DNA of 64,000 nucleotides from a virus (IMGVR_UViG_3300024274_000264), one strand, 5' to 3'. Positions 1-31,339 are shown, numbered from the stretch's first letter. Notes: generated by a model from the letters alone, not told the origin. Program-made: numbers and translations.

Positions 1-111
1 AATCATAAAAAGTATAACAAAACAAAAGGAATAGTTTTTAGGTTTGAAATATAATAAACTTCATATAAGCCTCACCAGGGGCTTTACGAGCAAATTTGGA
101 GCAACTATTTT

Positions 112-714
112 ATGCAGGTGGACACCGCAAACAAACAAGAGTTTAAGCTGGTTTATCATGATTTATGTGATTCGTTTTGTTTGTATAGAAATGATAAAGG
201 TCTAACTATTTTAGAACAAGAAAAAACGGAATACAATTCCAGATTGTATTATGATAAGTCACAATTGGTTTCGAGTATTAAAGAAAAGTATTTTGAAATA
301 TTTAAAGAACCTTTTAGTGGTCTTGTAAAAATAGAAGAACCACATCATTTGATGTATGAATTTGTTAATTGCTTTCCTAAAAATGACGAATCTTTTAGTT
401 TGAAAAGATGTAATTTAAATGATCCTAAATTTTATAGTACAGTTGTTTTTGAAAATGGAACTGCATCAATTGTAATAGGAACAAATGAATTATATGTTTT
501 AAACAAAAAAATGATTTTTTTAAATTCTAGGCGGCTTAATTCAGGAGAAAAAATTTATAGTTACTTATCTGAAAATGGAATTATAGAATCTTCTATTTTT
601 TTAAATGACGATAATTTATTTTTTGAGTTGTTTGAATTAACCATAAAAAATTTAATTCCAAAATTTACACTTGTAAGGGGTGGTGAAAATATAAAATATG
701 ATTTACAAAAATAG
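112..714 (+). CDS. Hypothetical protein, family A (C-terminal YLSENGI motif)
   Basis: 200-aa ORF; shares Y-x-K-x-F-x-x-x-F and YL(S/T)E-x-(G/S)I motifs with 762..1292 and with the tnpB-interrupted gene. Confidence 0.75.
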   Translation: MQVDTANKQEFKLVYHDLCDSFCLYRNDKGLTILEQEKTEYNSRLYYDKSQLVSSIKEKYFEIFKEPFSGLVKIEEPHHLMYEFVNCFPKNDESFSLKRCNLNDPKFYSTVVFENGTASIVIGTNELYVLNKKMIFLNSRRLNSGEKIYSYLSENGIIESSIFLNDDNLFFELFELTIKNLIPKFTLVRGGENIKYDLQK

Positions 715-761
715 AAAATCGGGGAGGGTGTCTAAGTCTCAAACATCAAAAAAAGGAACAT

Positions 762-1292
762 ATGCTAAATCCTAAAGATATAAAGCTTGTGGCAGAATAC
801 TCAGTAGAAGGATCTTGTTTGTTTAAAAACAAGAAAACAGATGACGAAATTCTTTTAATAGGAAAATCCAAACAAGAAATTGGTTTTTTTCTTGGAAAGT
901 ATGAAAAAATTTTTAAACATACTTTTAATTCTTTTGTAGTTGGAAATTATAATCCTAATGAATTTCATTTATATTTTTATAAAAATGGTAGACCGCAAGT
1001 AATATTTATTTATTCAAAATTTACTAAGAAAAAATTTTTTCAACTAACTTTTCGAGATAGTGAGATAAAAGGATTTTCTAATATTGAATTTGACTCAATA
1101 AAAGATTTTCCTTTTATATATATGGGTCAGTCTTCAAATAAAATGTTTAGTTATTTAACTGAAACATCTATAAAAGAATTTCCGTTTCAGATTTTAGAAA
1201 AAGAAAACATTATTCAAACGGATTGGTTTGAAATCGATTTTGAAAATATAAAAATTGATAACATCGTATATAATTCCTTTTTTGAGAATTAA
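762..1292 (+). CDS. Hypothetical protein, family A (YLTETSIKEFP motif)
   Basis: 176-aa ORF with AAGGA SD upstream; C-terminal SYLTETSIKEFP resembles FLTExGIxEFP of the HRxDGPA family. Confidence 0.75.
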   Translation: MLNPKDIKLVAEYSVEGSCLFKNKKTDDEILLIGKSKQEIGFFLGKYEKIFKHTFNSFVVGNYNPNEFHLYFYKNGRPQVIFIYSKFTKKKFFQLTFRDSEIKGFSNIEFDSIKDFPFIYMGQSSNKMFSYLTETSIKEFPFQILEKENIIQTDWFEIDFENIKIDNIVYNSFFEN

Positions 1293-1298
1293 ACATAA

Positions 1299-1796
1299 AT
1301 GATAAATTCATACAATGGGCATATGTGTACATTTATTCAATTTACAGTAGGATGCCAACCAAATTATGCTTATTTCAACCATTGGTTTCCAATTAACGCA
1401 TTCAGAACAACAAAAGTTGTGATCTTATCGAAAATTTATTTTTCACAAAAAAGAAAACTAAAGTCTCTTTTTAAGAAACATTATCTCTTAAATAAGAAAT
1501 ATGGGTTTTCAAAAGAAGGTTTGGAAAAAACTTGTAAATCGATAGAAAAAGATATGAAATTAATGATTTATGATGCTCATGATGCTTCAAAAGATGTTGA
1601 AACGAATTTAACAGTAATGCCTTATATTTACCATGTTTCTTTTGAATATAATAAAGATTTATTTGGCGATAAAACCGTTTTTTTAAGCAATGAAATTTTC
1701 CCTGATCTTTTGTTTTGTACAGAAGAGCGCCTGAATGAATTGAGATATCTTGGAGCCAAAATAACAACGAGAGGACAAATAATTGTAACGAAATGA
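1299..1796 (+). CDS. Hypothetical protein, paralog of 1793..2257
   Basis: KIYFSQKRKLKSLFKKHY vs KIWFSQKRKIASPLYKHY; similar C-termini (DLL...ER...L...G...IVT[KR]); ATGA overlap. Confidence 0.75.
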   Translation: MINSYNGHMCTFIQFTVGCQPNYAYFNHWFPINAFRTTKVVILSKIYFSQKRKLKSLFKKHYLLNKKYGFSKEGLEKTCKSIEKDMKLMIYDAHDASKDVETNLTVMPYIYHVSFEYNKDLFGDKTVFLSNEIFPDLLFCTEERLNELRYLGAKITTRGQIIVTK

Positions 1797-2610: not shown

Positions 2611-3841
2611 ACGAAAATATGAACAGAAAACCCAAGGATTTATCCTTGGGATGAATGCGAATTTTTTACAAGTAAAAATATACTCCCACCCATACTTATC
2701 CTTAATCCTCAATGCTTATCAAAACTTTTAAAGTCAAACACCATAAGAAAGATTTTGAAAACATGTTCCAAAAAGCATATGAGGTTGCTTTATATGCTAA
2801 ATCTCAACAAGGAATAAAAACTCCATCTTCCAAAGATGTTAAACATGTTGGTTTGAAAAGTGAAATTTCTAATCAAATTTTAAGAAAATACCATTCAAAC
2901 AAAACCCTTAAAATCATTAAAAAAGACAAAGTAAAACTAATAATCCCAAGTCAAAATTTAAAATCAGATAAAGAAAACCAAAACATCTATGTTCCTTGTT
3001 TAAAACTAAACTTAAATTGTTGGTTTGATTTTAACTTTCTAAAAGTTAACCAAGTAGAAATTGACAAGGAATACGCCTATATCTCTTGTTCTTTTCAAGA
3101 AGAAATAATAAATAAAGAAACCGAAAATTTTGTTGGAATTGATTTAAACTCAACTTCTCATTCTATTGTAATAGCAAACCAAGCAACAGGCAAGGTTAAG
3201 AAATTTGGGAAATCAATTCCTCATGTTCAAAACAAGTACAAGAAAATAAGAAAAAACCTTCAACAAAAGAATTGTCATTTACCTATTAAAAAACTTGGAA
3301 ACAGGGCAAAAAATATAGTAAACGATACTCTTCATAAGGTAACAACTGTAATTGTAAAAGAAGCAAAAGCAACTGGTTGTGGAATTAAGATAGAAAACCT
3401 AAAAGGAATATCAAAGAAAAATACGAAGAAATACCATAAAGAAAGCAACTTCACCTTAAACTCTTGGCCATTTTATAAATTTAAACAATTTATAAAATAT
3501 AAGGCTTTTTTGTCTGGTGTAAGTGTTATTGAAATTGTTCCTGCTTGGACTTCTCAAAACTGCTCTCGTTGTGGTTTAAAAGGAAATAGGGAAAGAAAAT
3601 TATTTAAGTGCCAAAACTGTGGGCACGTTGATCATGCCGATGTAAATGCTGCTTTCAACATAGCGTTTTCAAGGATGGTCGATCCTATCAAGAATGAGAT
3701 TGGTAGGAGAGGAGAAAAAGCAAAGGCTTCGCCTTTGCCTATGGCACCCTCAACTGGCAATGGGTTTGAAGGCGATCCAACCAGAGAGCAATTTGAAGAA
3801 ATTCAAGAAACCCACTGTTAAGAACAGTGGGAGTATGTCAT
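2611..3841 (+). mobile_element. IS200/IS605-family (IS1341-like) non-autonomous element, tnpB only
   Basis: Left hairpin CCCAAGGA-ttta-TCCTTGGG (2631-2650); right hairpin CCCACTGTT-aag-AACAGTGGG (3811-3831) followed by AGTATGTCAT; no tnpA; exact left boundary uncertain (2611-2622). Confidence 0.8.
2712..3821 (+). CDS. tnpB: RNA-guided endonuclease TnpB
   Basis: RuvC-I GIDLN, RuvC-II IKIENL, zinc finger CSRCG...CQNCG, RuvC-III HADVNAAFNI; the catalytic D-E-D residues are all present. Confidence 0.93.
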   Translation: MLIKTFKVKHHKKDFENMFQKAYEVALYAKSQQGIKTPSSKDVKHVGLKSEISNQILRKYHSNKTLKIIKKDKVKLIIPSQNLKSDKENQNIYVPCLKLNLNCWFDFNFLKVNQVEIDKEYAYISCSFQEEIINKETENFVGIDLNSTSHSIVIANQATGKVKKFGKSIPHVQNKYKKIRKNLQQKNCHLPIKKLGNRAKNIVNDTLHKVTTVIVKEAKATGCGIKIENLKGISKKNTKKYHKESNFTLNSWPFYKFKQFIKYKAFLSGVSVIEIVPAWTSQNCSRCGLKGNRERKLFKCQNCGHVDHADVNAAFNIAFSRMVDPIKNEIGRRGEKAKASPLPMAPSTGNGFEGDPTREQFEEIQETHC

Positions 3842-4143: not shown

Positions 4144-4395
4144 ATGAAACTAATCGAATTCTATGCAACATGGTGTGGCCCATGCAAAATACAAAAACCA
4201 ATAGTAGAAAGACTAAGCAAAGAACTTCAAATGGATGTTCGCTATGTTGATATTGATGAAGAACCAGAAATCGCAAATAAATATGAAATTAGAGCTGTGC
4301 CATCAATTGTAGTTTTAGATGATCAAGACAAGTTTGTAAAAAAACTGGTCGGGCTACAAATGATGCCGACTCTAAAGGCAAATTTACAGTTTTAA
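4144..4395 (+). CDS. trxA: Thioredoxin
   Basis: FYATWCGPCK active site, VDIDE and cis-Pro VPS motif; 83 aa. Confidence 0.92.
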   Translation: MKLIEFYATWCGPCKIQKPIVERLSKELQMDVRYVDIDEEPEIANKYEIRAVPSIVVLDDQDKFVKKLVGLQMMPTLKANLQF

Positions 4396-4410: not shown

Positions 4411-5079
4411 GTGAAAATCAAATCTCTTATATTCGAAGAAGCTGAAAATATTGACAGAAGTGAAAGGATAAGTATAAGACTTCTCGATGAAATATTTGAT
4501 GCGTTTCATCTTTCAACTAAATTCTTGGGAAAAGAATTTGTTTTTACTCCAAGAGTTGCCAAAAACTTATATAAAGATGTAGACCAAAATATTATTGAAG
4601 ATGATATTACGCCAAGAATTTCTGTGGCACGGCGTATAGAAGATGCTTTAGCTTCGCTTGATGGTGTTTATCCAAATGAAGAATTCTTCATTTATGGAAT
4701 GGACACAGAAAAAGCGAACAAAATGTTTTCGACCGCAAAGAAAATAGAAGATTGTCCAGATGATGGAGAATCTGATTATGGACTTTCATTTTTGATGAAA
4801 AAGTTTTTAACAAAAACATTAAATTTAAACGATGAAGAGAGTGAAGAACTTTCCCAAAAAAAATACTCCCCCAAACTATTAAGAAAAGATTTGGGAGATA
4901 AATTCATAGGATGTGTTCCAGACGCCAAAGAAACAAATGAGTACTGGCTTTTAGAACCAACAAATTTTATATTCATCGGTTCTTTGATTAATTCGCGATA
5001 TTTTTATCCAAGTGTAGAATTTAAAGAAAATTATTTCTCCAAAGAAGACCTAGCAGAATCTGTTGAATACAACAAGTAA
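4411..5079 (+). CDS. MKIKSLIFE-leader protein, possible ADP-ribosyltransferase-like fold
   Basis: FHLS...FTPRV...EDDITPRISVA...VPDAKETNEYW pattern suggests an H-S-E ART-like core; recognised by eye only. Confidence 0.5.
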   Translation: MKIKSLIFEEAENIDRSERISIRLLDEIFDAFHLSTKFLGKEFVFTPRVAKNLYKDVDQNIIEDDITPRISVARRIEDALASLDGVYPNEEFFIYGMDTEKANKMFSTAKKIEDCPDDGESDYGLSFLMKKFLTKTLNLNDEESEELSQKKYSPKLLRKDLGDKFIGCVPDAKETNEYWLLEPTNFIFIGSLINSRYFYPSVEFKENYFSKEDLAESVEYNK

Positions 5080-5136
5080 AAAAATAAGAAAATTATTTAC
5101 TTGCAGAGTTGAAAAAAATTTTTTATATTTAGATAT

Positions 5137-5802
5137 GTGAAAATTAAATCGCTTATATTCGAAGAAATTAAAGCTATTGTTAAAACATCGCGGCTAGAGT
5201 ACGCCGATAAGGGGAATCAATTGTTTCTCAAAATAGGAAACAATATTGATTCCCCTTCTGCTTTTGGTTTGGGGGATGAATGGAAAAAAGAGACTGGCAA
5301 AAACTTTGAGTCGGGCGTTTCTTGTTTTTTTGTTTCTAAAAAGGGAAACAAGTATTTTATTTCAAAACCTGATCAAAGCCAAGCGCTCTATGGTTTAAAA
5401 GACTATTTCCAAAACATGTTTCTTGACGTTCTTTTAATTCCTCTTGTGCTTGGTCAAACAAATATCGTAAAAGGAGAATTAATTCCAATTCAAAATCAAG
5501 ATTTCGCGGAATGGTACTCAGAAGTCTATCCAGATGAAGTAGATGAAAATACAAAATTTTATGATTATCTAACAGGCTCAGATGGAGAACCTTTATTAAA
5601 AGTTAACACGGTTTCGGTTATTGAAAAAATAGATCCGATACAATTTTTGGAAAACTTTTATATTAATGATGGTTATCGTGTATTAGATTTATTTATGGAT
5701 AATGTTAATCGTTTATTCGACGCAGATTTTCCAGATGAAACCTCAGATGAGTTTATTGACTATTTGAACCTTAAAATCAAAGAGAAAAGAAGTCGCAAAT
5801 GA
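5137..5802 (+). CDS. MKIKSLIFE-leader protein, possible ART-like fold
   Basis: ESGVSCF and GSDGEPLL motifs could supply the S and E of an ART core; weak. Confidence 0.4.
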   Translation: MKIKSLIFEEIKAIVKTSRLEYADKGNQLFLKIGNNIDSPSAFGLGDEWKKETGKNFESGVSCFFVSKKGNKYFISKPDQSQALYGLKDYFQNMFLDVLLIPLVLGQTNIVKGELIPIQNQDFAEWYSEVYPDEVDENTKFYDYLTGSDGEPLLKVNTVSVIEKIDPIQFLENFYINDGYRVLDLFMDNVNRLFDADFPDETSDEFIDYLNLKIKEKRSRK

Positions 5803-6425
5803 AAATTAAACCTCTTATCTTCGAATCAAAAACTCGATATTCAGATATTGCCGATGAAATTCAAGATTTGAATGAAATGTCTCTTAAAAAGATTAAACAA
5901 AAATATTCTCTAAATGAGATTAACAGAGGCGAAAACAAAGTCATTTATTATACATTTACCCCAGGTAAATTTCTATTGAAAGTATCCAACAATTCAAGAG
6001 AGATAGAAAAGGAAATTAATGTCTATAAATGTTCTGGTTATTCTTCATTACTAACAAAGGTTTATGGATTTGATCGAAATAACTATAACTGGATGATTAC
6101 TGAACAAGTTCAAACTTTGTCGAAGGATAAATTTGAAATGCTCTTATCTAGTATTTTAAATAACACAAATGTGTTAAAAGAGTTATCTATTATAGCGCGT
6201 ACAGAGAATTCTTCTCTTGAAAGAGAGTTTGTTAAAATATTAAAGGATAAAAAAACCCGTAACACTAAAATCGATAGCGAATGGTTGGTATCAATTTTGG
6301 AACTAGTTGATTTATGCGGTTTAGAATCTGGGGATTTATATCATGATAATTGGGGCACACGAAATGGATCTGATTTAGTTATTTTGGACTATGGCTTTGA
6401 AGGATTTGACGACAATGAAAATTAA
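5799..6425 (+). CDS. Minimal protein-kinase-like phosphotransferase 1
   Basis: RGENKVIY, LLKV, EKE, WMITEQV, catalytic loop GDLYHDNWG, DFG-equivalent ILDYG. Confidence 0.75.
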   Translation: MKIKPLIFESKTRYSDIADEIQDLNEMSLKKIKQKYSLNEINRGENKVIYYTFTPGKFLLKVSNNSREIEKEINVYKCSGYSSLLTKVYGFDRNNYNWMITEQVQTLSKDKFEMLLSSILNNTNVLKELSIIARTENSSLEREFVKILKDKKTRNTKIDSEWLVSILELVDLCGLESGDLYHDNWGTRNGSDLVILDYGFEGFDDNEN

Positions 6426-7074
6426 ACCACTTATATTTGAAATGGCACTCTCGAAACTACCAAAAGAGCTAAATGACATTGTTGACAAGCTAAGAAATAT
6501 GTCTGTTGATGAAATTGAAAAAATGTTTGCTGGTAAAGAAATAGGCGCAGGATCGTTTAAAGTTGTTTACAATCTTGGAAACTATGTGTTAAAAGTATCT
6601 AAGGACGAGACCGATGAAATAAAAAACGAAATAAAGATAAAGTCTTGCGGAGGAGATAAATTTTTAACAAAGATTTATGCATATGACGAAACAGGATATA
6701 CATGGTTAGTTTCTGAAAAAGTCAGACCTCTAAACCCAGGCAGGGATACAATGGGTTTTATTGATTATCTTAAAGCCGAATTAGAAGGTTCTAATTTTCT
6801 TGATATAGAACAGTGGATTGAAGGTTATGGTGGAGAAGAAGAAAAAGTAAAAAACTATGAACTTGAAGGCGAACAGTTTTTACATACTTTTTTAGATTAT
6901 TTAAAATCTCAAAAAGATTTTCCAACAGGAAAATATTCGCCCTGGCTTAAAAGCCTTTTAAACCTCATTAGACGCTGTGAAATAAATCCAGGAGACTTAC
7001 TCGTTAGAAACTGGGGGAGGCGTTTAAACGGGGATTTTGTTATTTTAGACTATGGTTACACAAAGATGTTTTGA
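6415..7074 (+). CDS. Minimal protein-kinase-like phosphotransferase 2 (start revised to the MKIKPLIFE ATG)
   Basis: Gly loop IGAGSFKVVY, VLKV, KNE, WLVSEKV, GDLLVRNWG, ILDYG. Confidence 0.78.
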   Translation: MKIKPLIFEMALSKLPKELNDIVDKLRNMSVDEIEKMFAGKEIGAGSFKVVYNLGNYVLKVSKDETDEIKNEIKIKSCGGDKFLTKIYAYDETGYTWLVSEKVRPLNPGRDTMGFIDYLKAELEGSNFLDIEQWIEGYGGEEEKVKNYELEGEQFLHTFLDYLKSQKDFPTGKYSPWLKSLLNLIRRCEINPGDLLVRNWGRRLNGDFVILDYGYTKMF

Positions 7075-7076
7075 AA

Positions 7077-7733
7077 ATGAAAATTAAACCACTTATATTT
7101 GAATCTAATACAAGCGAAATTAAAAGTATAATCAACACATTAAAGTCTTTTAGGTTTTATGAAGACATTGAAAAATATGCAATTTCTAATTTTAGATTAA
7201 TTGGTAAAAGTGAATATTCAACAAGAGAAGTTTATCAAGTCAACAATAACTTGGTTTTGAAAATTGATTTAACAGGGCGACAAAATCAAAATGAAGTAAA
7301 GGCTAAACAGTGTATAGATGATTTGTTTGCCACAAAAATTTATGATTTTGACAAGTCGTATTTCTATTGGATAATAGCAGAAAAAGTTAGCCCAATAAAA
7401 TCCGTAGAAGAATTCAGAGCAGCTCTTTTAGAAAAATTAGAAGGTTCAGATAGTTCAATTATATCTTCTATTAAAGATGCGGAAAAAGATGTTTCCGAAG
7501 AGGATAGAGAAAATGGAGATTATTTTTCTCTTGCCGAAATTTTTAATGGAATTTTAGAAAATGTTATGAGCAATAATAGAAATTATACTACTCGCGTTAA
7601 TAATTGGATGTTGACTTTAGCTAAAGGATTAGCTCGTTGTGGAGTAAAGCCGCAACAAGTAGACCTTCACGAAGAAAATTGGGGCAAACGTGATAACGGT
7701 GAATTGGTAATTCTTGACTTAGGGTATTTCTAA
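7077..7733 (+). CDS. Minimal protein-kinase-like phosphotransferase 3
   Basis: IGKSEYSTREVY, VLKI, QNE, WIIAEKV, VDLHEENWG, ILDLG. Confidence 0.75.
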   Translation: MKIKPLIFESNTSEIKSIINTLKSFRFYEDIEKYAISNFRLIGKSEYSTREVYQVNNNLVLKIDLTGRQNQNEVKAKQCIDDLFATKIYDFDKSYFYWIIAEKVSPIKSVEEFRAALLEKLEGSDSSIISSIKDAEKDVSEEDRENGDYFSLAEIFNGILENVMSNNRNYTTRVNNWMLTLAKGLARCGVKPQQVDLHEENWGKRDNGELVILDLGYF

Positions 7734-10818: not shown

Positions 10819-13800
10819 TTAATCTGTAAAAACAACGCTTCCTCTTGTTAGCTCAAATGTTGATTCAATAAACTCAAGAGATTCTGTTGGTTGAACAATT
10901 ATTTTTCCTCTTATTACTCTATTTGCTTTATCAAGTTGGGTTGTGGTTAAGTTGTTGATAAAAACTCTATAGCCGTCTAAGCCACCTAAGTCTTGTATTT
11001 CTTTCAATACTGGTTCAACGAGTTTTGAGAATTCTTGTAAGAGAGAATCTGTATATTGTTCAAACAATGTTGATTTAGAAATTAAGCGAATTCTTCTTCT
11101 AAGTGTAAGTAAAAGTCTACGAACGTTGATTCTTTCGAGAGAGGATACACTTGCGTTGACTGTTTTTTGTCCCCAAACTTTAACACCTTCTCCGCTGAAT
11201 GCAGTAATTGGATTAATTTTTTCTGGATAAAGATCGTCAAGATTTTCTTGTTTAAGAGTTAACGCAGTTCTATCAACCGTGTTTAATGCACCGCGGGTAA
11301 ATCCTGCTGGAGCAAACCAAGAATAGCCGACAAGATCATTTAATCCATAAGCTCCAAGAACAGCAACAGAAGGTGGTACTCTAACAGAAACCTTGTTATA
11401 AGAATCTTGAATTATAACATCTGGGAAATAAGTTGCAGCATAACTTGAATCTAAGCCTCTATTTCTAAAATTTATAATAGTTTGTGAAATAGAAACATCT
11501 TGTGTGTCACTTGTTATCGCATTTCCATTTACATCTTTTTCTTCTAGATCGAAAATATAGAAAATGTCATTTCTTGATCTTGTCGCAACATCAATTGCCG
11601 CATCTGTAATAATTTCGTGACGTATACCAGGCATAACAAACAATCTTCCATCGACTTCTGTTGAGTCAGAAACTAAGTCTAAAGATTTTCTATAGGCTTT
11701 AACAGTTGGACCATCAGAGAATCCTCGGTTAGAAGAATCCATTTCTTCAATAATAGCTTTGTTTGTTAGATATTTCGTATCAAGATTGAAGATTCTTACT
11801 CCGTCAAATCCACCATAGAAATAACATGTAAATTTACCAACAGTTCTTGTTGTTGGTTCTGTTAAGTCAGTTATTTGTAATGCTCTTGTTAAGGCAGATG
11901 TATCAGTAGATATATTTCCTGCACGAACGTATGTCCAATCTTTTATTCTGCTTGTGTTTGGCAGACCTGTTGAAGAATTGTAATAAATTTTTACTTTTTC
12001 GAGAGAGAAAAGATTGTTGTTGAAACGATCTGCGTCTAATATTCCATTTTCTGCAGAATCAGCAACACCTTCATTTCCATCTACAACAAAGTTCATCCAG
12101 TCTAATTGAAAGTCTGGGAAGTATTTTGTTCTAGAAGAAATGCTCTTGTTAAGAACTTTAGAGCTGTTTGGTTCGCTAACAGATACAACATTTTCGAATT
12201 GAACGCCCCAATAAAGATTACGGTCGGCTGTTTTTGTTGTTCCTGTTCCTTTTGAAATGGTTGTTCTGAACGGAACGGGCGGCTCCAATATTTTATTAAA
12301 TGGATTTTGAGAAGTTAAATAGGTTGCATCGCTAAATGCAGGCATAGGAGCACTTCCAGAAGTTACTAAGTGTTGTGGACCTCTAAAGCCCATTGGAAGT
12401 AAACTAGAGTCAATGTCTCCATTGTCAACTAATTCATCCATTTCAACGCGAATATAACGTGAACGAAGTTCGTAGTTTCCCGTTTCGGTTAATCCTTGTT
12501 GTTCTTCTGCGATATCAAAATTGTAATAAATGTTTTTATCGCCAATTTGTTTTGCGATGTATTTAGCTGATTTTGGATTTAAGGTTAAGCCTCTAAAAGC
12601 TTCTAAAACAACTTTGTTATTGTCTGTATCGCTAAATGATCTGACAAGAATATCAAAAGTTCCATATGGATTTACATCATTCGTTGATGGAGAAATGTTT
12701 TCGACGCTTACCTTAACTGGGTTTTGTTCCCCATCTGTAATAAGATGAAATTTGAACAAGTTTTGATATAATCCACCTTGTCGTTGTGAGATAAACCAAG
12801 GTGTGTGTGCAGAACGATATCTATCTTCAAATGATTCATAATTTGGTGCGGTTGAAGAACCGCTGTTTCTAGACATTGCCCCCGTAACTAAAAATGCAAT
12901 ATTTTCGCGAACTCCACCATTAGCTGTGGCAATAATACCTGAACCAGTTGGCACGGCAAGAGAACTATGAACATCATAATAAGAGTATAGAACATATCCT
13001 GCTTCTTCCATTTTTAAAGGATCTTTATTTAGAACAGTTCCTAAATAATTTGGGGCTGTTGGATCAAATGAAGCTGTTAAAGCTCTTGGATATGTTTCGC
13101 TTGTTCCTTTGTGTCCGTTTAATAAAATAACGAATTCTTGAGAACCGCCAGACAAGTAAACAGTACCAGTTATGCTTCCTTTTATTGTACCAGCAGAATA
13201 ATCTGCTGATGTAGAAGCATTTGGAATTGATGAATCTGGCCCTCTTGAAGAAGAAAGGGTTGGAATTACACCAGAAGCTGCCATTACAATGCCGCGAAGA
13301 ATTGATTGCCCACGGCCACTTAATCCTGCATCTGTAAAAACAGTCGAACCATTACTTTCTGACATGTAACAACCAAGAAAATAAGTTCTTCCTGCTGATC
13401 CTGTTGCGTTTGGTGCCGCTGAAACTGTGTTTGCATAGGCATTACTTCCATACGCACCAGATAAACTAGACTGTGGTTGTCTATCACCAACAACAAAACC
13501 TGCACTTGTTACTTTGCCGCGGTTATCGCCACTATCTGTTCTTTGAGTTCCGTCACCAACACCTAAAATTCTTATTTGTGTTAATGCTTGTTGGGTTCTA
13601 AACCATTCTGTTGCAGCAAGTGCTCCGTAATTAACGTAAGTAACTGGTACCCCGAAAATGGTTCTCCAATCTTTTAATGTTGGAACTAAAACTGGTACGA
13701 ATGCTGGTCCCATTTGTGTTGTTGAAATAACAACAGCTGGTAAACCAGAAGGTAATATTGCTGTACCACCACTTACATCAATTTCTTTTACATTTACGCC

Positions 13801-13827
13801 AGGACTTCTAAATGTTAATTCTGCCAT
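10819..13827 (-). CDS. Tail sheath protein 1
   Basis: N-terminal FRSPGVNVKEID, GPAFVP; C-terminal WFAPAGFTRG, KINPI, VWGQKT, RINVRRLL, QPTESLEFI. Confidence 0.93.
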   Translation of the reverse strand: MAELTFRSPGVNVKEIDVSGGTAILPSGLPAVVISTTQMGPAFVPVLVPTLKDWRTIFGVPVTYVNYGALAATEWFRTQQALTQIRILGVGDGTQRTDSGDNRGKVTSAGFVVGDRQPQSSLSGAYGSNAYANTVSAAPNATGSAGRTYFLGCYMSESNGSTVFTDAGLSGRGQSILRGIVMAASGVIPTLSSSRGPDSSIPNASTSADYSAGTIKGSITGTVYLSGGSQEFVILLNGHKGTSETYPRALTASFDPTAPNYLGTVLNKDPLKMEEAGYVLYSYYDVHSSLAVPTGSGIIATANGGVRENIAFLVTGAMSRNSGSSTAPNYESFEDRYRSAHTPWFISQRQGGLYQNLFKFHLITDGEQNPVKVSVENISPSTNDVNPYGTFDILVRSFSDTDNNKVVLEAFRGLTLNPKSAKYIAKQIGDKNIYYNFDIAEEQQGLTETGNYELRSRYIRVEMDELVDNGDIDSSLLPMGFRGPQHLVTSGSAPMPAFSDATYLTSQNPFNKILEPPVPFRTTISKGTGTTKTADRNLYWGVQFENVVSVSEPNSSKVLNKSISSRTKYFPDFQLDWMNFVVDGNEGVADSAENGILDADRFNNNLFSLEKVKIYYNSSTGLPNTSRIKDWTYVRAGNISTDTSALTRALQITDLTEPTTRTVGKFTCYFYGGFDGVRIFNLDTKYLTNKAIIEEMDSSNRGFSDGPTVKAYRKSLDLVSDSTEVDGRLFVMPGIRHEIITDAAIDVATRSRNDIFYIFDLEEKDVNGNAITSDTQDVSISQTIINFRNRGLDSSYAATYFPDVIIQDSYNKVSVRVPPSVAVLGAYGLNDLVGYSWFAPAGFTRGALNTVDRTALTLKQENLDDLYPEKINPITAFSGEGVKVWGQKTVNASVSSLERINVRRLLLTLRRRIRLISKSTLFEQYTDSLLQEFSKLVEPVLKEIQDLGGLDGYRVFINNLTTTQLDKANRVIRGKIIVQPTESLEFIESTFELTRGSVVFTD

Positions 13828-13929: not shown

Positions 13930-16900
13930 TTATGAAATAATAAAAGTTCCAGATCTTGTAATAACGAAATCAAGCACAACATATTCGACCGATTCGATTG
14001 GTCTTACTTTTATAGAAACTCTAATTTTGTGATTTTCTTTATCTATATCTGTATTGTTTGTATTATCGCACACAACTTGAAAAGCACTTATCGCTTTTGC
14101 TTGTTGCAAGAAAGAGAACTTGTTTTCTAAAGCTCGTTTAAGGTTATCTCTAATTGCTGGTGTTTGATTTTCAAATATAAAAGGATATCCAACATTTGAA
14201 ATCAGTCTAGAAATTTCAATTGAAAGACGTTTAACATTTATTCTGGAAGTTAAAACATTTGTTCCTTGTTTGAGGGTAAATTGAGAGAATAGAACGAACA
14301 GTCCTTCGTCTTTGATAATTGGATTTATTCTTGTATCGCTAAATACATTTTTATCTTGAGCTTTTGTTTTTTGAGCAACGGCCTTAACAAATGTAAGTGC
14401 TCCGCGATTTAATCCTGCTGCGGCATACCAAGGATAAGTAACTCTATCATTGAATCCAAAAACAGCAAGTGCAGCTACCGACGCAGGAACAACCGTTCTT
14501 TTTTCATTTAGCGGATCTTCAATTGTTACAGATGGGTGATAAACGGCAACAGCGCCATTATCGATTGCTCTCGCATCGAAAACTTGTGCGGTTTTTTGAT
14601 TATCAATAAATCTGTTTGTTTCTCCGTCAAAGATTCTGATAGAGTCGCTATCATACGCGGGAATATCCATTATATAAAAAGCTCGTCCGAAATCAGAAAC
14701 CTTTTGCGAAGCGTAATCTGTAACAGTCGACTCCCTTTGTCCAGGGAGAACCATTATGTACATTGGAGAACTTAGCGGATCAGTTACAATTCTTACAGCG
14801 GTTTTATAGCTGTTTATTTGGTTGTTTGCATCTCCAGTTCCATTCATGTTTGTGCTAAATCCTGGGGAAACGAAACTTGATGCGGCTCCTCCATAGCCCG
14901 CGCTTCCAGATTCAATAGAAGTTGATCTGTCTGTGAATTTTCTAGCTTCTTTGTCTAGAACGTTAACGCCATCAAATCCTCCGTAAAACATTGTTGTGAA
15001 TTTGCTATAGTCGCTAAAACGATTAAATTCAGCAGCAGTTCCTTTTTGCAGCACGGAAGCTAATGTGATTCTTGCTCCAATTGTTCCATCGGTTATTGTA
15101 TAGTTTGTTCCGTCTGGTGTTCCATTTCTTATATAAGCTGATTCTTTTAAGATTGAAGCAACGGAGGCAGTAAGATCAGCAATTGCTGTGGTTGGGAGGG
15201 CAACTTTCGAAAGGGAAAACTTATTATTATTGAAAGTGTCAACAAAAGAACCAGTAAACAAAGTATCTAGTTTCGAAATACCTAAAAGTTTACCATAACT
15301 TGGAATAAGTTCATTTCTTTCGCTTACAATGTTTGTGTTTGTTGCCTCGGTATTACGTTCAAATTTAATACCCCAATATAAACGACCATCGACAATTTCT
15401 GTTGTTCCTGCTTGACCTGTGTATGCAGCAGTAGAAGAAACATCTCCTCTGGTAATTTTAAATCTGAATGGCAGTGGTGGAACAATAGGCGATCCAGAAA
15501 CAGAACCAGAAGCTCCAATTCTTGTCGTTCCACTTGAATCAGTTGTAGAATCAGAAGTTTTAAGTGTTGGAACACCTTTAAAACCAAATGGTAAGCACTT
15601 CGCAGGAAGTGTTTTTAATGCAACCGCATCAGAAACGCGAACTCGAATATATTTTGATTTATTTGGATATGTACCAGAGATATTTACTCCGCGATCATTT
15701 TCATCCTCGAAATCAAATCTATATTCTGCTTTAATATCTCCGACAATTTTTGCAATGTAACGATCTGAATCTTTATCTAAATTTACATTTGTAAATTGTT
15801 CTAATATTTGTGGGTTGAAATCTGTATCTTCGAAACTTCTAACAACAACTGTAAATGAACCGTATTCATAAGAAGGATCAGAAGAAACTTTTAATCCAGC
15901 AATTGAAATTTTTACCATTCTATTCGCGTTATCGCCATCAGAAATGGTTTCAAAATTAAATAAATCATATTCAATATTACCAAATGGCTGCGAAATTATC
16001 ATTGGTGTTTTAGGCGTTGAATACCTCGTATCGAATCTTCCAAAAAGATTTCTGAAAGGATCAGATGTTATTCCACCTGTTGACGTTGTTGCAGCAGAAC
16101 CAGAAATAATTGCTACGCTATCTGTGTTTGAAGCGCCGCTGGCTATTGGGGCAATTTCAGCATCAATTGGAAAATCAGCGTATAAATAATGCCCTTCTTG
16201 TAAGAATTTATCTGGGTTAGTGTTTAACACTTTTCCGAAATAATCGCTGTCTGTTGGATTTAATGAAGCTGTTAGTATTTTAATTCCTGCCAATCCATCA
16301 GAAGCAGAAAAACTCGAACCTAAACTTGTTGATACTACAAGTTTAAATTTTCCTTTAGTTACGCTATTTGATCCGCTATCAATTGAAGCAATATCGTTTA
16401 CAGCATCAACAAACGTTTCGTTTGTTCCATCTAGTACCATAATACGAGAACCAGAAGAACAAAGAATCATTCCTCTTACAAGATTGACATATCCACTGCT
16501 AGCAGTATAAGAATCGTTGTCTGTGAAAACAGGATATCCATATGATTCTTTTGTTGCTAAAGCATGTTTTCCGACAAGAAATTGAACTGAACCGTTGTGG
16601 CGAAGATCACCAGAAATTCCAGTCTGTGATCCAGAAACAAAAAATCCTGCGTTTTTAACAATTCCTTTTGTTCTAGTATCGTCAAAATCTCCAGAACCAC
16701 TGTTTGATCCTGCTCCTAATAATCTTACAATTACTGCGCTGTTTCTATTCTCTAGCCATCTTTGCGAAGCATAAGATGCAGGATATCCTGGTGTTACTGA
16801 TCCGAATTTTGCTATTTGATCAGATAATGATCCAATGACAGTTGGCACAAATGCTGGACCTTGTACCATTGCGCCAATAATTGCAACTGGATCGCCTGTT

Positions 16901-16974
16901 GGTACTGTGTCTCTTACCGAAGCATCTATTTCACTGTCACTGTATCCTGGGAATTTTAAAATTGTTTCTGTCAT
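13930..16974 (-). CDS. Tail sheath protein 2
   Basis: FPGY...EID, GPAFVP, WYAAAGLNRG, RINPI, RINVKRL, VRPIESVEYV. Confidence 0.92.
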   Translation of the reverse strand: MTETILKFPGYSDSEIDASVRDTVPTGDPVAIIGAMVQGPAFVPTVIGSLSDQIAKFGSVTPGYPASYASQRWLENRNSAVIVRLLGAGSNSGSGDFDDTRTKGIVKNAGFFVSGSQTGISGDLRHNGSVQFLVGKHALATKESYGYPVFTDNDSYTASSGYVNLVRGMILCSSGSRIMVLDGTNETFVDAVNDIASIDSGSNSVTKGKFKLVVSTSLGSSFSASDGLAGIKILTASLNPTDSDYFGKVLNTNPDKFLQEGHYLYADFPIDAEIAPIASGASNTDSVAIISGSAATTSTGGITSDPFRNLFGRFDTRYSTPKTPMIISQPFGNIEYDLFNFETISDGDNANRMVKISIAGLKVSSDPSYEYGSFTVVVRSFEDTDFNPQILEQFTNVNLDKDSDRYIAKIVGDIKAEYRFDFEDENDRGVNISGTYPNKSKYIRVRVSDAVALKTLPAKCLPFGFKGVPTLKTSDSTTDSSGTTRIGASGSVSGSPIVPPLPFRFKITRGDVSSTAAYTGQAGTTEIVDGRLYWGIKFERNTEATNTNIVSERNELIPSYGKLLGISKLDTLFTGSFVDTFNNNKFSLSKVALPTTAIADLTASVASILKESAYIRNGTPDGTNYTITDGTIGARITLASVLQKGTAAEFNRFSDYSKFTTMFYGGFDGVNVLDKEARKFTDRSTSIESGSAGYGGAASSFVSPGFSTNMNGTGDANNQINSYKTAVRIVTDPLSSPMYIMVLPGQRESTVTDYASQKVSDFGRAFYIMDIPAYDSDSIRIFDGETNRFIDNQKTAQVFDARAIDNGAVAVYHPSVTIEDPLNEKRTVVPASVAALAVFGFNDRVTYPWYAAAGLNRGALTFVKAVAQKTKAQDKNVFSDTRINPIIKDEGLFVLFSQFTLKQGTNVLTSRINVKRLSIEISRLISNVGYPFIFENQTPAIRDNLKRALENKFSFLQQAKAISAFQVVCDNTNNTDIDKENHKIRVSIKVRPIESVEYVVLDFVITRSGTFIIS

Positions 16975-29958: not shown

Positions 29959-30267
29959 ATGAAAAAAGTTCAATTTAAAAATGAAATGAAAACAGTTCTA
30001 AAAGAAGGACTTTTATCAAAAATTGTAAATCCAGGACATGGAGAGCTTGATAAATATTTAACCAAGGTTGATAAAGTTATTACAGATACAATCGAAACTT
30101 GTGGCGAACTTATTGAAGAAGGTGAAGAACTTATGGAAGAAGATATACTTCGCCTCCCACAAGTTGGAGAAAGAAACAGAATAATTCTTGATATGATTGG
30201 TATTTTGAGAAAACTTAAAAATGATTTAGCAACAATGCCAAATCAAACAAGACAAAAAATGGGTTAA
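29959..30267 (+). CDS. Hypothetical protein
   Basis: 102 aa, helical, N-terminal VLKE motif. Confidence 0.7.
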   Translation: MKKVQFKNEMKTVLKEGLLSKIVNPGHGELDKYLTKVDKVITDTIETCGELIEEGEELMEEDILRLPQVGERNRIILDMIGILRKLKNDLATMPNQTRQKMG

Positions 30268-30824
30268 GAATTTATTTGTTCAAGAATTTTTGTTAAAAAT
30301 TCTTGAACTGTTTCTTGTGCTGATATATCGATATAGTAAACTATAGGTGCTTGATTCTTTGCAAATCTCACATATGAGTCTTCTTTTTTCTTTGATTTAA
30401 ACTCTACCAAATCATACTTTTCAAATTTAAACTGATAGATTTTATTAGGAAGTTTTGTACCAGTTACAAACGGAATAAAATAGTTTGATTTCTTATCTTG
30501 TGCAAAAAATCTTTCTTTCTCTATTTCCGATGGAAGGCCACTATAGTTTTTTGTTACTGTGAGATTTTTCATATATGCATTTTCTGTTATCAAACTAAAA
30601 AAACCCTCATCTCCATATTCGATAATATCTTTAGCAATGTTAAAAAAATTATCAGTAGATTTTATCTCTACTAAATTTACAATTTTTGTATATAAATTTG
30701 TGCCTGGAAAATGTTCTGATATGAAATTGAAAAGATCTTCTATGGTATTTGCCAGTGTAGATAATTCTACTGTAGAATTTTCATCGGTTTTTTCAAAAAT
30801 AAATTGTTTTAAGAAAAGCATCAT
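30264..30824 (-). CDS. Hypothetical protein (MMLFLKQFIFE leader)
   Basis: 186-aa ORF. Confidence 0.65.
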   Translation of the reverse strand: MMLFLKQFIFEKTDENSTVELSTLANTIEDLFNFISEHFPGTNLYTKIVNLVEIKSTDNFFNIAKDIIEYGDEGFFSLITENAYMKNLTVTKNYSGLPSEIEKERFFAQDKKSNYFIPFVTGTKLPNKIYQFKFEKYDLVEFKSKKKEDSYVRFAKNQAPIVYYIDISAQETVQEFLTKILEQINS

Positions 30825-30862: not shown

Positions 30863-31339
30863 ATGATAAAGATATTTGACATAGTGTTTGAAAACAAGGA
30901 TCTTGATAGACAGTATAAAGAACTTGGTTTCAAACCAGGAGTACATCCTGTCGTAACCACACATAATAAACTTTTAGATGGTATTAGAAAACAAGTTACC
31001 TCAGTATTAAAAGGTGAAAATAAATATCTCCCAAACTATGGAAGTAAATTAACGAAAGAAGAACTTCTCCAACTTGTCACAAAAGGATCTGTGGTAATTC
31101 ATGATAAAAATGGAGAGCCTCATGATGTATCAATTTCCCAAGCTCTTGATAAACCTGGAATGTTAATTGAAATTTTAAAAGAACTTATTGTTTCTGGTTT
31201 TTATACAAGAGAAGAAACATCTCCTGCTATGAAATATCTTTTAGCCTCGTCTGCTCGCCTAAAAATGGCAAATCTTAAAAAAGAAAATTATTTCGAACTT
31301 TCAAATATCGAAATTGAAAATCTTTTATTCTTGCTTTGA
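30863..31339 (+). CDS. Hypothetical protein (MIKIFDIVFE leader)
   Basis: 158-aa ORF with TATTTA 8 nt upstream. Confidence 0.7.
   Translation: MIKIFDIVFENKDLDRQYKELGFKPGVHPVVTTHNKLLDGIRKQVTSVLKGENKYLPNYGSKLTKEELLQLVTKGSVVIHDKNGEPHDVSISQALDKPGMLIEILKELIVSGFYTREETSPAMKYLLASSARLKMANLKKENYFELSNIEIENLLFLL

Follow-up and report, generated by a model that had tools for sequence, protein, structure and literature searches.

In bacteriophage T4, the internal proteins (IPs) IPI, IPII and IPIII and the ADP-ribosyltransferase (ART) Alt carry a capsid-targeting sequence (CTS) that is removed by gp21, and the IP loci are hypervariable among T-even phages (Mullaney and Black, 1996; Repoila et al., 1994, as cited in PMC3012670 and PMC5694885). 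The propeptide targets proteins to the core, after which gp21 removes it (PMC3012670, PMC5694885); those in the T4 record are all short and end in L/I-x-E (MKTYQEFIAE in IPII and IPIII, MLKEQLIAE in gp22, MNEPQLLIE in gp21 and MAKINELLRE in gp24). Here we describe a 64,000-nucleotide (nt) stretch of DNA, the window, from a T4-like giant wastewater phage that has not been cultured, in which the products of five adjacent genes (g1 to g5) begin with the same nine residues, (V/M)KIK[S/P]LIFE, and we propose that this leader is probably a tag of the T4 kind on swappable cargo. The window is the minus strand of positions 61294-125293 in a 203,914-bp IMG/VR virus record (IMGVR_UViG_3300024274_000264, referred to as G000), which CheckV estimates to be 56% complete, and the DNA sources were bioreactor, activated-sludge and wastewater metagenomes.

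The likeness to T4 lies in an N-terminal leader of 9-20 residues that ends in L/I-x-E and sits on unrelated bodies, in genes for a gp21-type protease and a gp23-type capsid protein, in a cargo content that varies among relatives, and in the inclusion of an enzyme among the cargo, which in T4 is the ART Alt. The differences are that the leader reads MKIKPLIFE rather than MKTYQEFIAE, that about half a genome already holds at least 11 tagged genes as against 3-4 in T4, and that six mini-kinase paralogues and a GNAT acetyltransferase dominate, whereas the named T4 cargo (IPI-III and Alt) is neither kinase nor GNAT; moreover, the present phage is known from its sequence only. The host-takeover protein kinase of phage T7, gp0.7, is an early product made inside the cell, is larger and is not known to carry a capsid tag. 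It belongs to the same superfamily as the kinases described here, and the likeness is one of analogy only.

Two further systems bear comparison. The ejection proteins of phiKZ-like giant phages (SPN3US gp53 and gp54, phiKZ gp93; PMC5694885, PMC10052503) are head paralogues with identical N-termini that hold the protease motif, and they have been inferred to be packaged and ejected; their propeptides, however, are mostly longer than 100 residues and end in A/S/G-x-E, whereas those described here are of T4 length with a hydrophobic residue at P3. Kinase-PolyVal (PF18762; Iyer, Burroughs, Anand, de Souza and Aravind, 2017, PMC5512222) is a kinase core found in polyvalent phage proteins that has lost its C-terminal subdomain. 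The kinases of the cassette likewise have a core of the Ser/Thr/Tyr-kinase superfamily that lacks the C-terminal subdomain and keeps the residues for ATP binding and phosphotransfer, and both groups are phage-borne, predicted to be delivered with the DNA, found beside ART and GNAT domains, and present in stand-alone and cassette-like copies. Unlike Kinase-PolyVal, the kinases described here do not match PF18762 and are stand-alone products of 200-260 amino acids with a putatively cleavable tag, not domains of giant proteins. The mechanism would be of the already known T4 CTS kind; what appears to be new is the cargo, namely six kinases without a C-terminal lobe from a large unannotated family together with a GNAT protein, and the finding that the tag also acts as a junction for recombination.

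A shared leader on unrelated proteins

An earlier note on this DNA, made from the sequence alone, had drawn attention to five adjacent genes that start with one nonapeptide. This proved correct: the open reading frames (ORFs) occupy 4411-7733, and when all six frames of the 203,914-bp record were scanned with a degenerate pattern, exactly five matches were returned, all of them in the cassette. I-F-E occupies residues 7-9 in each of the five products, and among the five copies of the leader five synonymous codon positions vary and one non-synonymous position (S/P), which points to selection on the peptide. The overlaps between g2 and g3 and between g3 and g4, together with the 2-nt gap between g4 and g5, make g2-g5 look translationally coupled. 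In the AlphaFold model of g4 (mean predicted local distance difference test score, pLDDT, 92.6) the leader is a low-confidence appendage with a pLDDT of 55. The note had assigned the bodies to at least two unrelated groups; they are indeed unrelated, and the number was too low, as the cassette holds at least three unrelated body types. In IMG/VR the DNA pattern of the leader matched only four related contigs, where MKIKPFIFD is internal to a longer ORF, and these were not taken to carry the same tag; the four contigs (L007-L010) come from one sample, and in them another ORF begins just downstream.

The tag extends beyond the cassette. A search for [LIVMF][LIVMF]FE ending within the first 17 residues gave 10 ORFs as against 1.5 expected from the density of the motif elsewhere in ORFs, and an eleventh copy of this looser form (hh-F-E, h being hydrophobic) begins at an internal Met. 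Outside the cassette there are six such copies, which end at residues 8-11 (Table 1), so that a search of the record for the leader yields five exact-type copies and six looser tagged genes elsewhere; the two leaders that the note had picked out, ending in FIFE at 30264 and IVFE at 30863, are among them and are real. When the leaders are stripped, only the six kinases resemble each other, leaving six body families in all. The 204 kb encode at least 11 tagged proteins: six mini-kinases lacking the C-terminal lobe, one ART-like protein, one GNAT protein and three without an assigned family. A 399-amino acid ORF beside the portal gene (G000:136473-137672; window orientation -12378..-11179, minus strand) has the leader-like KIKLFEFIFE (residues 15-24), after which comes a Gly-rich stretch; it may be a further head protein with a longer propeptide.

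The position is occupied by comparable peptides in other phages. A relative of about 65% identity has KLK[KQ][IF]IFE, KLFKFIFE and EIKSIIFE on the same bodies, and F8 and E9 are invariant, as are the catalytic residues, in 12 kinase homologues that are 29-60% identical. Homologues of g1 in unrelated phages, whose contigs include some of 640 and 676 kb, have different leaders that are common to unrelated neighbours: M..TI.KLRSLIRE occurs twice in contig L030, a leader is likewise found twice in L028, and L029 has MK.[IL]KLFEEY. Hydrophobic-x-E is present within the first 20 residues of 99 of 111 members of the kinase family, compared with mostly 24-58 of the 111 in other 20-residue windows and 92 in one that holds a conserved motif. 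Roughly twenty members (14 by pattern, more by eye) begin MKTLKEF..WL.EE, which is close to the T4 CTS.

The leader as a candidate capsid-targeting tag

A T4-type head module lies 6-12 kb upstream of the cassette on the same strand and comprises portal, Peptidase_S77 protease, scaffold-like and gp23-type capsid genes. The gp21-type prohead protease (G000:132334-133053) matches PF03420 (Peptidase_S77) with 83.6 bits (E 1e-24) and contains the motifs GELDH and SSRAMGS, while the gp23-type capsid protein matches PF07068 with 197.5 bits (E 2e-59). Alignment of the latter to T4 places a putative cleavage site, VLME/A (the slash marking the cut), near residue 67, compared with LTE/A at residue 65 of T4 gp23.

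Since the same tag, ending in a putative head-protease cut site, is borne by at least 11 proteins, these are probably packaged in the head and delivered together with the DNA. We estimate the probability at roughly 65% that the leader is a T4-type CTS and protease propeptide on swappable cargo; targeting, packaging, cleavage, ejection, substrates and timing are what we infer within this proposal. As heads assemble, the leader would bring its proteins to the prohead's scaffolding core, and the gp21-type protease would then cut after Glu9, I-F-E fitting the T4 rule of L/I-x-E; the mature enzymes would stay with the DNA inside the head and would probably pass into the host alongside it. The suggestion of the earlier note that the shared leader is a T4-like capsid-targeting tag is supported in silico by its portability across six body families, its I-x-E end and the gp21- and gp23-type genes upstream.

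Several points weigh against this proposal. The phage is uncultured and its proteins are known here from sequence alone. The likeness of the leader to MKTYQEFIAE is one of general shape (M-K at the start, I-x-E at the end) without sequence homology, and the residue after the Glu varies (E, S, M, K, N), while T4 sites mostly have A, S or T. The capsid cleavage site was inferred from a gapped alignment. Prediction of a complex between residues 30-200 of the protease and residues 1-40 of g4 gave the proposal weak support, with a score of 0.46 (best control 0.00) that falls in a range where, without a strong prior, passes are more often wrong than right; contact agreement between runs was at least 76% and the pLDDT of the partner at least 55. 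The mark in question was attained by 51 of 78 solved complexes as against 2 of 108 mismatches, and at 0.60 or under by only 5 of the 78 and by all 4 mismatches that passed. As regards a late promoter, ATATTTA is only weakly enriched upstream of genes and is absent from the capsid and sheath genes.

Alternative explanations

The tagged proteins could enter the prohead as assembly or core components that are degraded or left behind, in the manner of T4 gp67, gp68 and gp22, and thus not serve as host effectors, and T4 core proteins do bear the same kind of N-terminal propeptide (PMC5694885). The bodies behind the tag, however, are compact enzymes with intact catalytic residues (K60, E72, D194, N199 and D212 in the kinases, and the GNAT motif), are not acidic or coiled-coil in the way of scaffold proteins, and differ in content among close relatives, unlike essential core parts; in addition, the closest analogues, the T4 IPs and Alt, are injected (PMC3012670, PMC5512222). 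A purely structural role is thus unlikely. The leader might instead be a site for another enzyme or sorting system, such as a radical-SAM maturase, or serve as a degron or in N-terminal modification. One radical-SAM protein is indeed encoded in the record; as about 80 kb separate its gene from the cassette and the protein has no SPASM-domain match in Pfam, we do not consider the two linked. The nine-residue tag also lacks the Cys, Ser or Thr core typical of sites resembling those of ribosomally synthesized and post-translationally modified peptides, and its end is the exact motif cleaved by the protease family that is encoded beside the capsid gene, all of which makes a site of this sort very unlikely.

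It could also be argued that the shared 27 nt function at the level of DNA or RNA only, as a scar of recombination or gene conversion or as an element for translation initiation in these tightly coupled genes, and that the peptide itself has no function. The leader is demonstrably a recombination junction (see below), the leaders of g4 and g5 are identical in DNA, and the GTG starts of g1 and g2 have no obvious Shine-Dalgarno sequence, all of which would fit such an element. A functionless peptide would nevertheless be hard to reconcile with the excess of synonymous over non-synonymous differences (five to one) among the copies, with dispersed tagged genes that are alike in peptide pattern and not in DNA, with the invariance of F-E in homologues of about 30% identity from other phages, and with the fact that other phages place different peptides there that end in hydrophobic-x-E. 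We regard this explanation as highly improbable.

If the leader is a capsid address, the delivered set would act before transcription and would likely be rich in counter-defence and takeover functions, and the tag would allow the injected protein set of uncultured T4-like or giant phages to be read from sequence. Kinases and an acetyltransferase would then join the ART (Alt) and the restriction inhibitor (IPI*) of T4 as types of cargo, and the tag itself could serve as a packaging handle.

Minimal kinases in the cassette and beyond

The three genes g3-g5, which are 28-39% identical in pairwise comparisons, had been described as kinase-like on the basis of D-L-x-x-x-N-W-G and ILD[YL]G. Both motifs are present and conserved, and the hallmarks of the protein-kinase-like fold are all found in g3-g5: the Gly-rich loop, the VAIK Lys, the helix-C Glu, the catalytic D..N and the DFG Asp. 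In an alignment of 100 sequences of the family, K60, E72, W97, E101 and D212 are invariant and G46, D194 and G214 are conserved in at least 90% of them, and the 12 closest sequences all have N199. The g4 model has, besides its high pLDDT, a predicted template-modelling (TM) score of 0.85. A Foldseek search of the PDB, which had been suggested as a check, returned kinases as nearly all of the top listed matches, with a probability of 1.0 and a TM score of about 0.4, and VIA-align gave a Z of 9.2 to DRAK1 (root-mean-square deviation 3.9, 131 residues aligned) and of 7-8 to APH(2''), Rio, Bud32 and ADCK3. Among the fold matches in BFVD are proteins of Ralstonia phage RSB1 and Pantoea phage SK1 that are annotated as kinases, and a sequence profile of the family weakly matched MST4, STK24 and APH at E of about 1e-3. 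From the predicted fold and the catalytic residues we are confident that g3-g5 are kinase-like. As they end 1-10 residues past the DFG-like D-[YL]-G, the C-terminal lobe with its activation segment and substrate-binding helices is missing, and they would be minimal, atypical kinases.

Domain databases gave little indication of this. None of g1-g5 matched Pfam (for g3-g5, at E up to 1); Kinase-PolyVal (PF18762) had no match to the cassette genes and only a 12-bit match elsewhere in the record; and PHROGs returned only families of unknown function for the cassette genes, the mini-kinase family matching PHROG 4301 alone. Neither the cassette (by blastn) nor g1, g4 and the database relative P0073 (by tblastn) had a match among 50,697 cultured-phage records, and a word-index protein search retrieved nothing beyond near-identical or close relatives. 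A profile of the family matched 705 of 1.84 billion cluster representatives at E <= 1e-3, mostly proteins with 200-240 amino acids. Some database relatives have 350-920 amino acids, and those scanned contain no known polyvalent domains; one long relative, P0112, is an adhesin-like repeat protein and was rejected as a spurious family match.

Leaderless members of the family occur in two cultured jumbo phages, CBB (KU574722, 299204-300313, CBB_444 and CBB_445) and RaK2 (JQ513383, 241615-242199, RaK2_00356), with profile E values of 1e-13 to 1e-17. Their annotation is hypothetical and their neighbours are tRNA and small genes, and the main text of the CBB virion-proteome paper does not mention CBB_444 or CBB_445, which is uninformative. 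The existence of such leaderless members indicates that the tag is an add-on and not part of the fold. Two IMG/VR contigs of 57-62 kb (L035 and L036), from a phage of a different type from that of the window, have tandem arrays of 2-4 mini-kinase paralogues with MKTLK[EQ]F-type leaders that adjoin a gene for a 1250-amino acid polymerase-like protein with a PHP domain. In another contig (L021, IMGVR_UViG_3300032313_001529), many neighbouring proteins of 300-600 amino acids have long amphipathic leaders that end in [IL]-x-E, for example MLKNNIIKNYLKILFE and MLTKNKLKNYLKKLIE. It is tempting to speculate, although we consider it rather doubtful, that the mini-kinases are a widespread family of dedicated effectors delivered by virions, mostly under protease-cleavable capsid tags of their own phages, and that in the present phage six paralogues act together with the ART-like and GNAT proteins, modifying host or defence proteins before phage expression. 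Irrespective of this, an unannotated family of minimal kinases found in many phages, RaK2 and CBB included, merits biochemical study.

The bodies of g1 and g2

The earlier note had considered two of the cassette genes to be ART-like. For g1 this gained weak support from fold comparisons. Its model is weak (pLDDT 63.5), and Foldseek found nothing significant in the PDB, whereas about 35 of the 50 top rows from VIA were ARTs (TreX, Arr, LT, pertussis toxin, Tpt1, PARPs, ParT, RES and DarT), with a best Z of 5.0. Rows from AFDB include RES, DUF3990, DUF4433 and ART-PolyVal, no single match being significant, and a language-model (Atlas) search gave Arr and DarT/PARP as leads. Eight usable homologues share an invariant H33, S35, IEDDxTPR, Y95, VPDA and E177, which may include the catalytic triad (H-Y-E or R-S-E) of ARTs. 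Judged from the model, g1 is probably ART-superfamily-like. Alignment of g1 with g2 by BLAST and by profile-profile comparison covers the leader only, and g2 has no match in Pfam, PHROG, PDB or Atlas and no similarity to the g1 body or to known ARTs; sequence-profile searches of the PDB with g1 and g2 returned noise. As g2 is unrelated to g1 and without an assigned fold, the claim was only half right.

Cassette variation and the leader as a recombination junction

Relatives differ in the content of the cassette, with 3, 4 or 5 genes. After the thioredoxin gene, which stands directly ahead of the cassette in the window as in every relative (synteny, contigs L011-L014), the window has g1-g2-g3-g4-g5, L011 has g2-g3-g4-g5 (g1 absent), L013 has g2-g3-g4 (g1 and g5 absent), and L014 has g1-g2 and further sequence until the contig ends. 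L019 holds genes of the g2-g3-g4 types, and L012 has the types in the changed order g2-g1-g3-g4. In L011 and L013 the g2 body is preceded by the upstream sequence that in the window precedes g1, which places the junction of g1 gain or loss inside the 30-nt leader repeat. These comparisons indicate that the leader, at 27-30 nt, doubles as a site of homologous recombination for the gain and loss of cargo. The idea of a swappable gene set, put forward from the sequence of the window, was thereby borne out as a variable cassette among relatives with a breakpoint within the tag, and a leader of this kind would offer a concrete mechanism for rapid exchange of cargo.

Table 1. Positions of the cassette, its leader repeats and other genes named in the text. 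Coordinates are those of the window unless preceded by G000, which denotes the whole record.
Feature	Coordinates	Strand	Description
Thioredoxin gene	4144..4395	+	Pfam PF00085, E 6.5e-18; no leader; directly before the cassette
g1	4411..5079	+	GTG start, VKIKSLIFE and 213-amino acid body; probably a divergent ART-superfamily-like fold (weak)
g2	5137..5802	+	GTG start, VKIKSLIFE; few relatives; resembles g1 in the leader only
g3	5799..6425	+	ATG start, MKIKPLIFE; minimal protein-kinase-like domain; start overlaps the g2 stop (ATGA)
g4	6415..7074 (inside ORF 6391)	+	ATG start, MKIKPLIFE; minimal protein-kinase-like domain; 11-nt overlap with the end of g3
g5	7077..7733 (inside ORF 7071)	+	ATG start, MKIKPLIFE; minimal protein-kinase-like domain; 2 nt past the g4 stop
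27-nt leader coding repeat, five copies	4411..4437 (copy 1), then at 5137, 5799, 6415 and 7077	+	Copy 1 is the breakpoint of g1 presence/absence
Gene with MMLFLKQFIFE	30264..30824, start at 30824	-	No assigned body family; TATAAATA 24 nt upstream
Gene with MIKIFDIVFE	30863..31339	+	No assigned body family; divergent from the 30264-30824 gene
Kinase with MLKTFIFE	G000:200452-201165		hh-F-E leader
Kinase with MKLFNFLFE	G000:192684-193478		hh-F-E leader
Kinase with MNLFNIIFE	G000:23521-24249		Leader at an internal start
GNAT protein with MNLFNLIFE	G000:195751-196251		PF00583, 24.3 bits (curated cut-off 20.7)
Radical-SAM protein, 494 amino acids	G000:38685-40169 (outside the window)		PF04055, 51.6 bits

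Promoter motifs and genomic setting

TATTTA stands 5 nt before both GTG starts, those of g1 and g2, as the earlier note had stated. The added claim that structural genes share this arrangement holds in part: the motif is upstream of the portal, tail-tube and some other genes but of neither the capsid nor the sheath genes. The DNA is AT-rich, and ATATTTA, the 7-mer tested that contains TATTTA, shows only a 2.9-fold enrichment upstream of genes, compared with 7.9-fold for ATAATTA; a role of TATTTA as a late promoter is not well supported. CTAAATA is found 22 nt upstream of the thioredoxin gene and also upstream of the capsid gene; as CTAAATA and TATAAATA each precede few genes, there is no clear promoter consensus.

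The cassette is located between the head and tail modules and is followed on its 3' side by convergent genes, a gp19-type tail tube gene and two sheath paralogues. The latter are adjacent genes for proteins of about 1000 amino acids (window 10819-13827 and 13930-16974, minus strand), of which only the C-terminal thirds are matched by sheath models (PHROG 23). Between the capsid gene and the start of the window lies a gene for a 610-amino acid GIY-YIG protein (window -1778..54; G000:125240-127071), a position that recalls the homing endonuclease SegD adjoining gene 23 in T4. Finally, a 1.2-kb insertion at window 2612-3833 contains a TnpB/Cas12f-like gene (2712-3821; PF07282, E 1.6e-23); the gene that it splits is intact, with 192 amino acids, in L013, to which both flanks are 94-95% identical.

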